Positions 28,020 through 33,202 of a stretch of 38,879 nucleotides of DNA are shown piece by piece; position 1 is the stretch's first letter; every line of letters starts with the position of its first letter. Source of the stretch: Nitrospirota bacterium (GTDB lineage: Bacteria; Nitrospirota; Thermodesulfovibrionia; UBA6902); the NCBI GenBank assembly GCA_016222905.1, contig JACRPZ010000058.1, forward strand, positions 1 to 38,879, read 5' to 3'. A program made the position numbers and the translations under genes. The notes beneath the pieces were generated by a model, which did not search any database, was not told the DNA's origin, and was given only the letters and a program-made list of their open reading frames with translations.

Positions 28020-28043
28020 GACTGTCAATTCATAAATGGAAAA

Positions 28044-28073
28044 AAAGCCGGAGCATCATCTTGCTCCGGCTTT
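28044..28073. terminator. Rho-independent terminator hairpin (gccggagcatcatcttgctccggc) flanked by an A-run 5' and a T-run 3'. It looks bidirectional. This is copy 1 of an about 50-bp repeated element.
   Basis: It has a 9-bp GC-rich stem and 6-nt loop and lies directly downstream of the PpiC gene. It is near-identical to 31476-31505. Confidence 0.6.
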
Positions 28074-28150
28074 TAATTGCAAAAACTAACTTTTCAGGTT
28101 TCTTATCTATGTTTTTGGAACTCTCAAGACTCAACTTGAGCCAAGCAAGT

Positions 28151-28312
28151 TCATCTGACTTCCTCTATGAATTCTTCAAGAAGCCGGTTAAACCTTTCAG
28201 GCTGCTCCCACTGGGCAAGGTGCCCGGCATTGGGGATGATCTGAAGATCGCCCCGCCATAGTGAATCTACGATACTGGCTTCCCTGAGTTTTATATACAA
28301 CGCATCTACACT
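28151..28312 (-). pseudogene. 3'-terminal remnant of an alpha/beta-hydrolase gene (about 53 codons, no start codon)
   Basis: The minus-strand frame reads ...LWRGDLQIIPNAGHLAQWEQPERFNRLLEEFIEEVR*. This is the characteristic C-terminus of alpha/beta-fold hydrolases (catalytic His in GH, E-x-P-E). The frame is closed by a stop 53 codons upstream with no ATG. Confidence 0.45.
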
Positions 28313-28346
28313 CTAACTGTATTCAATCTTAATCAGATCACTCCTT

Positions 28347-28643
28347 TCACATTTTATCCCATTCAGGAACGACTTCTTTTGAATACTTTTTGCTTGCCAT
28401 AATATTGTCGTAATTGCTTAATATTTCTTCACGGGTTTTATTCTTTAGTATATTTTGGAAATACTTATTGTCTTCAATTTCAATTATCTCTTTCGTAAAT
28501 GCGAATAATGCAAACTGATTTATTGATACTCCTTGTGTATCAGAAACTTTTTCAATTTCATTCTTCAGACTTTTTGGGATACGAATGGTTGCGTCAAGTA
28601 AGTTTATACAGTCACTTTCCTCTCGTCTTGCACAATGAGACAT
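28347..28643 (-). CDS. Orphan ribbon-helix-helix protein (antitoxin/Arc-CopG-like), 98 aa
   Basis: The segment ATIRIPKSLKNEIEKVSDTQGVSINQFALFAFTKEI fits the RHH beta-alpha-alpha pattern. An inverted repeat atacg-N8-cgtat overlaps its start codon. No toxin partner is visible. Confidence 0.55.
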   Translation of the reverse strand: MSHCARREESDCINLLDATIRIPKSLKNEIEKVSDTQGVSINQFALFAFTKEIIEIEDNKYFQNILKNKTREEILSNYDNIMASKKYSKEVVPEWDKM

Positions 28644-28998
28644 ACGTAATTTTGCGTATAGATAATTATATCATCTGTGGTTAGAATGTCAATGCGAGGC
28701 AGGGTGGTGATTATTTATTGACATATTCAAGAATTATCTGGTAGTCTTTGTTCATTAATTTTACGACTCAAACAGGCATTGGTCGTTTAACTTATTAACC
28801 TCTTTTATTCCTTTTGTTTAAAGATGGGGGGGATATTGAAGAGCAAATCCAGTCACATTTCTTTCCTTCAGGCAGTTCAATCTACTTGCATAAATTTTCT
28901 GTGTGAAAACGAAAATTATTGAGGTTCAACTTCGATAGTATTTTATGCAGAGCATACATTTCAATCAAAGGAGAACATTAAATCATAAGGAGGCAACA

Positions 28999-31126: not shown

Positions 31127-31137
31127 GAGACCTAACA

Positions 31138-31386
31138 TTGCAGATAGCATTAAACTTTCTACAGAGTCAGGAGTATGCGAACAGGAATACGAGCAACAGC
31201 GAATATATAGAAGACCTGTATAACGGTATACTGAGAAGGGGCGCGGAGCTTGCCGGTTACCAATCCTGGCTCACAGCGCTAAACGGAGGCATATATACAA
31301 GACAGACCATGCTTACAGCGTTTGTGAACTCAACGGAGTTTCAGGTCAGGGTTCAGCAGGTCATTGACGCGGGGTGCTTATTTTAG
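31138..31386 (+). CDS. DUF4214-like module (82 codons) with a TTG start. It may be an out-of-frame C-terminal domain of the preceding gene.
   Basis: The stretch EYIEDLYNGILRRGAELAGYQSWLTALNGGIYTRQTMLTAFVNSTEF matches the DUF4214 consensus (LY..xLxRxxDxxGxxxWxxxLxxGxxxRxxxxxxFxxSxEF). The first codon at 31138 is TTG. The frame is open from 31099, overlapping the end of the upstream gene in another frame. Confidence 0.45.
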   Translation: MQIALNFLQSQEYANRNTSNSEYIEDLYNGILRRGAELAGYQSWLTALNGGIYTRQTMLTAFVNSTEFQVRVQQVIDAGCLF

Positions 31387-31475
31387 TAGACTCACCGGAG
31401 TTTTGGTGGTCAAAGTTGCAGGGGCGCAAACTGAACATAACTAAGCCTGTTACTTCATAAACGTAAATAAGAAAA

Positions 31476-31505
31476 GCCGGGGCATAATCTTGCTCCGGCT
31501 TTTCT
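31476..31505. terminator. Rho-independent terminator hairpin (gccggggcataatcttgctccggc) with flanking A and T runs. This is copy 2 of the about 50-bp repeated element. It sits immediately 3' of proS.
   Basis: It differs from 28044-28073 by only 3 loop/stem substitutions. The similarity continues into ...ttttNttattgcaaRaactaa on the 3' side, overlapping the proS stop codon. Confidence 0.6.
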
Positions 31506-31516
31506 TATTGCAAGAA

Positions 31517-33202
31517 CTAATTAACCAGCAACTCCCTGATCTTTTCTGCAACATCGGGAGGGGCGATCTTTTCCGTCTCTTTTGTTCTTCTTGATTTAAG
31601 CTCTACAAAACCCTCTTGCAGTGTCTTCTTTCCGATTATTACCTGCCATGGAATCCCTATCAGATCGGCATCCTTGAATTTTATTCCAGGCCTTGCGTCC
31701 CTGTCATCAAGGAGCGCTTCAATCCCGCTCTCTTTGAGAGCCGTATATAATATTTCCGCTGTACTTTTCACATCCGCATCATCAATATTGAGCGGGATAA
31801 CTTCAACATCATACGGGGCGATGCTCTGCGGCCAGATGATGCCGTCCTTGTCGTGATTCTGCTCAACAGCCGCTGCCGCGATGCGCGCAGGGCCGATGCC
31901 GTAGCTTCCCATTATTATAGGAACCTCTTTCCCGTTTTCATCCAGATAAACAGCATTGAGCGGTTCAGAGTATTTGGTGCCCAGTTTGAATATGTTCCCT
32001 ATCTCGATCATTTTCTCAACCTGTATCTCTGTTCCGCATTTATGACACCTGTCGCCTTCTTTTGCCGTATGAATGTCATGCCACTCCGCATCAAAATGGA
32101 TGTGAGGGTTTATCCCCTTTGTATGGAAACCCTCTTTGTTAGCGCCTGCAATATAGACACCTTCTTTAAGGGATATATCAGCTATCTTTTTTAATGTATT
32201 GCCATAAGGGCCGATGAAACCAGCCTCAACTCCGAGAATCTCCTTTATCTCCGCCTTTTCAGCAGCCCTGAAATCCCCAACTAATTTGTGCAATTTCTTT
32301 TCATGAAGCTCCTGGTCGCCCCTGACCAGCGCAAGGAACGGGCCGTCTGTGCCGATAAGTAGAAGGCTCTTAATGAAAAACTGCGGGTTTATCTTCAGGA
32401 AACCTGAGACCTCTGTAACCGTCCTCTTTTGAGGCGTTGAGATGTCCTCCAGCTTCCACTCTTCTTCAATATGATGTGCATGAGGCGTAGAGCGCGCAAG
32501 TTCTGTGTTTGCGGAATATCCGCATTCACGGCAGAGCACCACAGTGTCTTCTCCCACAGGGCTCGGCGCCATGAATTCATGCGCGCCAGCGCCTCCCATC
32601 ATGCCCGGGTCGCTCTCAACCTGATAAAATTTCAGCCCGCACCTGTTGAATATATTGTGGTATGCCCTTGCATGTTTTTGATAATTCTCCTCAAGCCCCT
32701 TCTCGTCCCTGTCAAAGCTGTAGCTGTCCTTCATTGTAAATTCGCGTGTTCTCAATATTCCGCTCTTGGGCCTCTCCTCATCCCTGAACTTTGACTGTAT
32801 CTGATACCATATCTGCGGCAGGTTCCTGTATGAACTTATCTCCATAGAGGCAAGCCACGTTACTATTTCTTCATGGGTCATACCAAGACACATCTCCCTT
32901 TTGCCTCTGTCCTTCAGCCTGAACATCTCATCCCCTATAGCAGACCATCTGCCGGTCTTCTGCCATATATCGGCCGGATGCAGCGCTGGCATCGTTATCT
33001 CCTGAGCTCCGATAGCGTCCATCTCCTCTCTGATAATCTTATTTATCCGCTGCATCACCTTTTGGGCAAGCGGCAGATAAATATAGAGGCCTGATGCAAG
33101 CTGTCTCACATAGCCCGCGCGCAGCATCAGCACATGGCTAACAGCCTCCGCCTCAGCAGGGGCTTCACGTAAAGTCGGTATGAATATCTCAGAAAATCTC
33201 AT
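31517..33202 (-). CDS. proS: Prolyl-tRNA synthetase, 561 aa
   Basis: The N-terminus MRFSEIFIPTLREAPAEAEAVSHVLMLRAGYVRQLASGLYIYLPL is typical of bacterial ProRS. Class II motifs and the anticodon-binding domain are present. Confidence 0.95.
   Translation of the reverse strand: MRFSEIFIPTLREAPAEAEAVSHVLMLRAGYVRQLASGLYIYLPLAQKVMQRINKIIREEMDAIGAQEITMPALHPADIWQKTGRWSAIGDEMFRLKDRGKREMCLGMTHEEIVTWLASMEISSYRNLPQIWYQIQSKFRDEERPKSGILRTREFTMKDSYSFDRDEKGLEENYQKHARAYHNIFNRCGLKFYQVESDPGMMGGAGAHEFMAPSPVGEDTVVLCRECGYSANTELARSTPHAHHIEEEWKLEDISTPQKRTVTEVSGFLKINPQFFIKSLLLIGTDGPFLALVRGDQELHEKKLHKLVGDFRAAEKAEIKEILGVEAGFIGPYGNTLKKIADISLKEGVYIAGANKEGFHTKGINPHIHFDAEWHDIHTAKEGDRCHKCGTEIQVEKMIEIGNIFKLGTKYSEPLNAVYLDENGKEVPIIMGSYGIGPARIAAAAVEQNHDKDGIIWPQSIAPYDVEVIPLNIDDADVKSTAEILYTALKESGIEALLDDRDARPGIKFKDADLIGIPWQVIIGKKTLQEGFVELKSRRTKETEKIAPPDVAEKIRELLVN

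Follow-up and report, generated by a model that had tools for sequence, protein, structure and literature searches.

How does a short block of accessory genes, with no recombinase of its own, come to lie between two copies of one and the same terminator region? The question is raised by a locus from an uncultured Nitrospirota lineage, in which the convergent genes ppiC (peptidyl-prolyl isomerase) and proS (prolyl-tRNA synthetase) are separated by several small genes and gene fragments. The window referred to throughout is the entire contig JACRPZ010000058.1, 38,879 bases in length, which stems from a metagenome-assembled genome (MAG) labelled Nitrospirae/Nitrospirota by NCBI. An insertion specific to this lineage occupies 28090 to 31429, and its target now exists in duplicate, with one copy at either end, a genuine if rather ordinary trace of genes inserted long ago. 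Feature coordinates are collected in Table 1.

The state of the site before the insertion can be read from related genomes. Close relatives comprise seven loci with six distinct sequences (L002, L003/L004, L005, L006, L007 and L170), in which PpiC is 82–90% identical where full length and the DNA 78–90% identical to the window; in L005 and in L170, one gene of the ppiC/proS pair is only partly present. L170 was the one true relative among at least 120 metagenome matches to the hairpin-stem pattern described below. Together, the clade loci amount to ~75 kb of non-redundant relative sequence. In all seven loci ppiC and proS are directly convergent, 70–85 nt apart, with a single copy of the terminator region, and in each case this single copy aligns to both copies of the window (blastn). 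Where they were compared, the orthologues of ppiC (L002–L007) are 82–90% identical and those of proS, directly beside ppiC, 87.5–91%. The break points are illustrated by L002, of which 6768-10948 aligns to window 23893-28089 and 10856-12642 to window 31430-33214; the 93 nt shared by the two alignments (10856-10948) correspond to the duplicated unit. Two distant relatives (L010 and L011, PpiC 54% and 52% identical), taken from among the matches listed in a PpiC profile scan of a genome collection, likewise have ppiC adjacent to proS, with a single bidirectional hairpin unrelated to that of the window. Thus, the absence of the 3.3-kb block together with a single terminator copy, which the original prediction had named as the signature of an insertion, holds in every related genome examined, and the ancestral state was ppiC, one terminator and proS. 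The only other occupied site was seen in a more distant relative (L216, PpiC 60% identical), where a gene for a DoxX-family membrane protein (6138-6539) sits at this junction in the orientation of proS, separated from its neighbours by only 19 and 34 nt and not flanked by any repeat. The earlier suggestion of an insertion hot spot is weakly supported by this second occupant, but the DoxX gene is unrelated to the block and lacks a flanking duplication. As other insertions and deletions in the neighbourhood also lack a long flanking duplication, the latter is specific to the ppiC–proS event.

The duplicated region is longer than first described. Two near-identical sequences of about 50 bp had been reported from the sequence alone, and these were found at 28044-28089 and 31473-31520, copy 1 lying ~3 nt from its estimated position. 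Strict local alignment confirmed their homology and extended it to 28002-28089 (88 nt) versus 31430-31520 (91 nt), with 74 matches, 11 mismatches and 3 indels (9 gap columns). This equals 87% identity over ungapped columns, and the longest identical run is 16 nt. Within the window there are exactly two occurrences of the 31-nt hairpin core, where shuffles predict none. Still, unrelated metagenomes often contain the hairpin stem by itself, with at least 120 contig matches, many from named human-gut assemblies; nearly all of these come from unrelated samples and cover only 33–41 nt. The evidence of homology is therefore carried by the flanks only. With the hairpin removed, the left flank gave a score of 23 against a shuffle maximum of 17 (none of 2000 shuffles reached 23), and the right flank a score of 13, which was reached by 0.6% of shuffles. 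As the flanks are significant without the hairpin, the copies represent a true duplication rather than two convergent terminator stems: they are homologous. Their boundaries are sharp, and extensions past 28002/31430 and 28089/31520 were not significant, with 68% and 43% of shuffles scoring equally. A repeat of ~141 nt, in which copy 1 would also contain a remnant of the proS 3′ end (IRNLKS* versus IRELLVN*), had been suggested by a permissive alignment and was rejected, as its extensions do not exceed the shuffle level.

The repeat unit combines the final 16 nt of ppiC (five codons and the stop) with the complete intergenic sequence and the stop codon of proS. As had been noted, copy 1 is located between the ppiC gene and a hydrolase gene fragment, with the ppiC stop codon at 28017-28019 and the fragment stop at 28151-28153. 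The proS stop codon (TAG, complement of 31517-31519) falls within copy 2, again in line with the first reading. The claim that the 3′ end of proS had been duplicated survives for this stop codon but not beyond it, as the repeat holds no meaningful proS 3′ piece. In a separate observation, the ppiC 3′ end of L170 (~2970-3000, minus strand) carries a 12-nt tandem duplication (ACTGAACCTAAA twice) that begins at ACTGAAC, the left boundary of the 88-nt repeat of the window; the length of the ppiC tail thus varies across the clade.

Both copies contain a hairpin. Hairpin 1 folds with −24.0 kcal/mol on the plus strand and −22.1 on the minus strand (z −7.8 and −5.2), and its stem and loop are identical to those of the relative L170. 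Hairpin 2 folds with −32.0 kcal/mol (plus strand) and −26.1 (minus strand) and includes one G-U pair on the plus strand, equivalent to an A-C mismatch on the minus strand. Stems of at least 13 bp, T-runs on both sides and convergent genes, i.e. the features of an intrinsic bidirectional terminator, are found for both copies and for all relatives. The stem is invariant among the relatives, so that covariation was not observed, and Rfam returned sub-threshold matches only, driven by the hairpin. As the hairpin is complete in each copy and is accompanied by T-runs on either strand, a predicted strong terminator would still close each of the four converging units (ppiC, the antitoxin unit, the surface-protein operon and proS).

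The gene content listed earlier for the block was recovered in the Pfam, NCBIfam and PHROGs scans, and the suspected decay is apparent in its left third, where genes are truncated. The alpha/beta-hydrolase fragment matches only the last 30–40 positions of PcaD, MenH and BphD-type models in NCBIfam, and in Pfam gives a weak Abhydrolase_6 match at model positions 190–216 of 217. Fused to it in frame is a DUF2283-like fragment covering model positions 1–23 of 49 (Pfam E 6.5e-4, 20.3 bits and thus short of the 23-bit cut-off). The adjacent RHH gene (Arc/HicB-like) has lost its 5′ end. The nearest proteins, source-named HicB-family antitoxin, are 88 aa long and 85–90% identical, and come from MAGs source-labelled Candidatus Firestonebacteria, Desantisbacteria and Poribacteria. 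Compared as DNA, the RHH gene is 86–89% identical to five loci (L211–L215) over 238–240 nt, confined to 28351-28590; the sequence at its 5′ end is new, and neither the toxin gene nor the first eight codons of the antitoxin are present. Four of these loci (L211–L214) hold a toxin-first PIN_3–RHH pair, in which the PIN_3 gene overlaps the RHH start (three of the four distinct contexts read), and L215 has RHH alone. No PIN remnant was found beside the RHH reading frame of the window. A PIN_3 gene at 531-932 was considered as the lost toxin partner and discarded, since it shares only 29% identity with the toxin encoded beside the RHH homologues. From these alignments, the RHH gene clearly appears to be a truncated orphan antitoxin of horizontal origin, and the DNA identities point to a PIN–RHH module that would have spread recently between MAGs labelled as very distant lineages.

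The remainder of the block encodes secreted and surface proteins. The two small secreted proteins, A and B, share their leader, encoded in an 82-nt direct repeat (28968-29049 / 29427-29508, 85% identical) that includes the ribosome-binding site and signal peptide of each. Protein A gave no Pfam, NCBIfam or PHROG match, and the family of protein B is rare, with 38 representative clusters at E ≤ 1e-3 among 1.84 billion. For the DUF1566 surface protein, no homologue above 56% identity was found among 5.8 billion proteins. The GC content of the block rises from left to right (0.359, 0.412 and 0.489 in its three parts), with a mean of 0.435 versus 0.443 for the contig. Its tetranucleotide distance is 0.285, compared to 0.192 ± 0.042 for windows of the same size, i.e. 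~2.2 standard deviations above the contig mean, where the reference is one 38.9-kb contig and one other region of that contig is equally atypical. In sum, the cargo is a mosaic, partly of foreign origin.

With regard to origin, we lean towards the view that the block is a horizontally acquired, decayed and now immobile islet that would have arisen by a Campbell-type crossover at the ppiC–proS terminator. The islet would have entered the sole bidirectional-terminator region between the two convergent genes, by a single reciprocal crossover between the chromosomal junction and a junction-like sequence of ~90 nt on a circular incoming DNA. Such a crossover would leave two hybrid junction copies, equivalent to attL and attR, on either side of the cargo, with both neighbour genes intact. 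One target before the event, and two hybrid copies with intact genes after it, correspond to this geometry; moreover, the gene-proximal parts of the copies look native and most of the unique differences face the cargo, which fits B-O-P′ / P-O-B′ hybrids. The recombinase may have been lost with the rest of the element or may have acted in trans, as in cis-mobilizable elements. Site-specific integration with an att-like duplication was the original prediction. Its geometry stands, but we infer the integration from that geometry only, and neither a recombinase nor a related integrase-bearing element was found.

Several observations count against this reading. Pfam scans that covered all open reading frames (ORFs) of at least 56 aa within the block, together with the large ORFs elsewhere on the contig, and NCBIfam and PHROGs scans of the named cargo ORFs revealed no integrase, transposase or remnant of either in the block or the 38.9-kb contig, in agreement with the first inspection. 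A related element, with or without a recombinase, was found neither at the ppiC–proS junction nor elsewhere, and the block DNA had no match in phage or plasmid collections. Moreover, island repeats usually measure 16–20 bp (PMC2704930), which the 88–91 nt seen here far exceed, and at 87% identity the two copies are also less perfect. The copies have also diverged from each other as much as from the single copies of other species, for which an old on-the-spot duplication followed by drift is an equally good explanation. Finally, three compositionally distinct cargo parts could reflect several successive events rather than one. Among the related junctions, a small sample, none carries a recombinase-bearing element. 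The block neither contains nor adjoins a tRNA or tmRNA gene, the closest one being tRNA-Gly at 20826-20900, and no dif-like 28-bp XerC/XerD site was found in the window at up to 3 mismatches from a dif consensus.

The divergence of the copies was inspected further. Counting gaps, they are 77% identical to each other, and either copy is 71–82% identical to the single copies of other species (60–62% for L003). Left of the hairpin, copy 1 is closest to L170 (83%); right of the hairpin, copy 2 matches L002 and L005 at 100%. Most changes confined to a single copy fall in the cargo-facing parts. In its left half, copy 2 has some states, such as a form longer by 4 nt and a G at 31481, that agree with alleles of other species and not with copy 1. 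An attempt to identify the native copy by its affinity to relatives was abandoned, as L170, L002 and L006 are about equidistant from the window and the differences mix shared and unique states. Such a mixture does not tell whether a foreign allele was imported or the region was duplicated in place long ago. Gene conversion between the copies, suggested by their common loop variant ATCTTGC, was dismissed because the empty-site relative L170 has the same loop, which is hence an allele of the clade.

The best-surviving alternative, which we consider unlikely though deserving of attention, is that the duplication was made on the spot. A double-strand break, or staggered nicks ~88 nt apart, in the hairpin-bearing intergenic region would have been repaired around captured foreign DNA and the overhangs filled in, giving in effect a very long target-site duplication whose gene-distal halves then drifted, with no need for an att-like sequence on the incoming DNA. 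The sharp boundaries and a repeat that spans the intergenic region almost exactly agree with such an origin, as do the lack of a recombinase or related mobile element and the concentration of copy-unique differences in the unconstrained cargo-facing halves; the divergence of the copies is compatible with an old event on the long branch of this lineage, from which the relatives differ so far that their DNA is only 85–90% identical. Conversely, the ends of the insert lack terminal inverted repeats (score 8 versus a shuffle mean of 10.2), the states that copy 2 shares with other species are more easily explained by import of a different allele, and no bacterial insertion mechanism is known to give a duplication as long as 88 nt. 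Target duplications of transposons measure 2–15 bp. Transposition is excluded, given the missing terminal repeats and transposase and a duplication of 88–91 nt: the block resembles a transposon in that its target is duplicated on both sides but differs in all three of these respects. A related and rather far-fetched possibility is an integration that attacked the strands at opposite ends of the hairpin terminator, with the enzyme supplied in trans and the gaps then filled in, so that the ~90-nt duplication would not be an att pair but resemble the way in which Cas1-type integrases or casposases duplicate a repeat. If true, this would amount to an undescribed route of gene-block insertion that automatically provides both sides with a terminator.

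The Campbell geometry is also compatible with a second alternative, host RecA homologous recombination, to which we assign a rather low probability. Here, a circle formed in a related strain by recombination between the block's own flanking repeats would have been looped out and re-inserted via the ~90-nt homology. This accounts for homology on both sides of any crossover point without an integrase, and as the junction is conserved across the clade, homology would be available to any sibling strain. However, RecA is very poorly served by ~90 nt of homology that is ~85% identical and nowhere matches over more than 16 consecutive bases. The origin of the first duplication is also left unexplained, and no second genome carrying the block was found.

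It is very improbable that the block is ancestral and was lost from the relatives. The one-copy empty site that they display is precisely what recombination between direct repeats would leave behind, but nine of nine junctions at 52–90% PpiC identity are empty, and the tenth (L216, 60%) holds only the unrelated DoxX gene. As these junctions span well beyond the clade of the window, an ancestral block requires many independent precise losses; the identity of cargo DNA to MAGs labelled as other phyla (86–89%) argues in the same direction. Hardly any weight is given to the notion of a generic repeated terminator or repetitive extragenic palindromic (REP)-like family unrelated to the insertion. 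The hairpin stem is indeed common, as noted above, and the genome has another small palindromic repeat family (117-210 and 20681-20790). Nonetheless, this alternative, raised in the original prediction, is unlikely for the full 88-nt unit, which includes the ppiC tail and both stop codons, has significant flanks without the hairpin and, in a blastn search with 27900-31700, occurs only at the ppiC–proS junction in the window and clade loci, the relatives having one copy exactly where the window has two.

An assembly artefact, i.e. a chimeric contig joined at a repeated sequence, is just as hard to maintain: the contig does come from a MAG, and 29018-29465, which lies between the two copies of the 82-nt leader repeat at which the Logan assembly breaks, is bridged by the MAG assembly alone, across a repeated leader of ~40 nt, but Logan contigs of an independent assembly (run SRR12113394) match the window at 100% identity and contain both outer block junctions, each reported for 2–3 sequencing runs, the copies share no run above 16 nt, which is too short for a mis-join, and other joins would part ppiC from proS, which are adjacent in every relative with both genes (one gene apart in L216).

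Table 1. Coordinates of the insertion, its repeats, cargo and flanking genes, and of the Logan contigs that cover the locus (window positions; strand as + or −, a point where none applies).
Feature	Positions	Strand	Details and evidence
ppiC, PpiC/SurA-type peptidyl-prolyl isomerase, left native flank	27147..28019	+	Pfam Rotamase_3 E 1.5e-30, SurA_N_3
Direct repeat copy 1, 88 nt	28002..28089	.	ppiC last 16 nt, intergenic region, CTAA aligned with proS stop
Predicted bidirectional terminator hairpin 1	28043..28074	.	13-bp stem, 6-nt loop, A/T runs on both sides; terminator scan
Inserted block, 3,340 bp	28090..31429	.	blastn break points; absent from L002–L007, L170, L010, L011
Alpha/beta-hydrolase C-terminal fragment	28151..28261	−	~36 codons and stop, without N-terminal part; translation
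DUF2283-like N-terminal fragment	28262..28330	−	~23 codons, in-frame stop; translation LIKIEYS*SVDALYIKLREASIVDS
Orphan RHH (Arc/HicB-like) antitoxin ORF	28347..28643	−	98 codons; PHROG Arc-like repressor E 1.2e-6
Predicted sigma-70-type promoter, perfect match	28665..28692	−	TTGACA, 16 nt, TATAAT, with TG; promoter scan 12/12; upstream of RHH ORF
Small secreted protein A	28996..29355	+	ORF list; start possible at 28945; signal peptide MKKMVLLLVCCMV starts 28999
Small secreted protein B	29458..29772	+	Leader as in protein A, little similarity beyond
DUF1566/Lcl_C (two copies) and InlB B-repeat surface protein	29861..31126	+	Pfam Lcl_C E 8e-55, Flg_new_2 E 1.4e-10
DUF4214 protein, 82 aa	31138..31386	+	TTG start; Pfam DUF4214 E 1.7e-19
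Direct repeat copy 2, 91 nt	31430..31520	.	Non-coding ppiC-tail remnant ACTGAACATAACTAAG, intergenic region, real proS stop
Predicted bidirectional terminator hairpin 2	31472..31503	.	Stem to ~19 bp on + strand; folding
proS, prolyl-tRNA synthetase with editing domain, right native flank	31517..33202	−	Pfam tRNA-synt_2b, tRNA_edit, HGTP_anticodon
L001	20876-29017		Logan contig, 100% identity
L008	29466-31233		Logan contig, 100% identity
L009	31212-33299		Logan contig, 100% identity

Apart from the ppiC–proS junction, the neighbourhood has a quick turnover of accessory genes. Another lineage-specific insertion, absent from L002 and L005 and without a long flanking duplication, occupies 22608-23892 of the window; its genes at 22740-23381 and 23398-23805 (minus strand) have no Pfam match and lie between a CTP-transferase-like gene and mfd. 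At other intergenic sites, L002 has an extra 1,866-aa DUF2341/Laminin_G surface protein (211-5811), L005 an extra HEPN_AbiU2 protein gene (2607-3254) and L006 an extra DMT_6 protein gene (3297-3755).

Further features of the contig were recorded. Upstream of tRNA-Gly(ccc), a stretch of ~145 nt that is absent from L005 (20662-20806) contains palindromic TCATTCCCG...CGGGAATC motifs resembling the perfect 26-nt inverted repeat 117-142/185-210. Judging from these motifs, 20662-20806 and 117-210 look like members of a small family of REP-like repeats, or of repeats like miniature inverted-repeat transposable elements (MITEs), unrelated to the terminator repeat. A 300-nt direct repeat (14684-14983 / 15185-15484, 90% identical) within a PAS and triple-GAF gene (14242-16368, minus strand) appears to be a recent GAF-domain duplication. 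Finally, a 357-aa protein with a Ras/Arf-type small GTPase domain is encoded at 37615-38688 and is conserved at the corresponding place in L216.

Compared to known systems, the block has partial counterparts. Xer-dependent integrative elements and pdif modules comprise recombinase-less cargo bounded by dif-like sites, with the host enzyme acting in trans. The block resembles them in that cargo without its own recombinase lies between repeated sites and differs in that the window has no dif-like site. A closer match is provided by cis-mobilizable elements (CIMEs), i.e. decayed integrative and conjugative or integrative mobilizable elements (ICEs/IMEs) that keep attL and attR but not the genes for integration and transfer (PMC5704250). 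Like these, the block is situated at the ends of housekeeping genes between direct repeats that duplicate the target, lacks integration and transfer genes of its own, and has decayed content. In contrast, its repeats are imperfect, 88–91 nt long and of putative att role, its target is a convergent intergenic terminator instead of the 3′ end of one gene or a tRNA gene, and its host is an uncultured Nitrospirota lineage. A related autonomous element at the same att site was not found either, the only other occupied site being the repeat-less DoxX insertion of L216. CIMEs are therefore the closest described category, in which membership is not established as no parent element is known.

Genomic islands are characterised by absence from relatives, insertion at a tRNA gene, direct repeats that typically measure 16–20 bp and are perfect or almost perfect, and mobility genes (integrase, transposase, IS or transfer functions, whether intact or cryptic), and are termed islets below 10 kb (PMC2704930); a worked example lies downstream of a tmRNA gene, with 14-bp repeats and a tyrosine integrase (PMC12595487). 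Against this description, the block is absent from relatives, shorter than 10 kb and flanked by direct repeats, has neither a tRNA target nor mobility genes, and is borderline in composition (PMC2704930). It shares with classical islands, which have tyrosine integrases and occupy tRNA genes, tmRNA genes or gene 3′ ends, the toxin–antitoxin debris and surface-protein cargo and perhaps a partly atypical composition, whereas its repeats are 4–6 times longer than 16–20 bp, 87% identical and span the whole intergenic terminator region. It is the length and imperfection of the repeats, and their coverage of an entire convergent intergenic terminator, that are unusual.

Unless further whole-terminator duplications appear, the locus does not open a new mechanism. 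It does record a PIN–RHH antitoxin gene at 86–89% DNA identity across MAGs of several labelled candidate phyla. For the annotation of islets it is a case in point, as integrase-less islets with long imperfect repeats are missed by finders that require an integrase or a tRNA gene. Moreover, it provides a clean and well-controlled example of one occupied site and its empty counterparts in a poorly studied, uncultured phylum.

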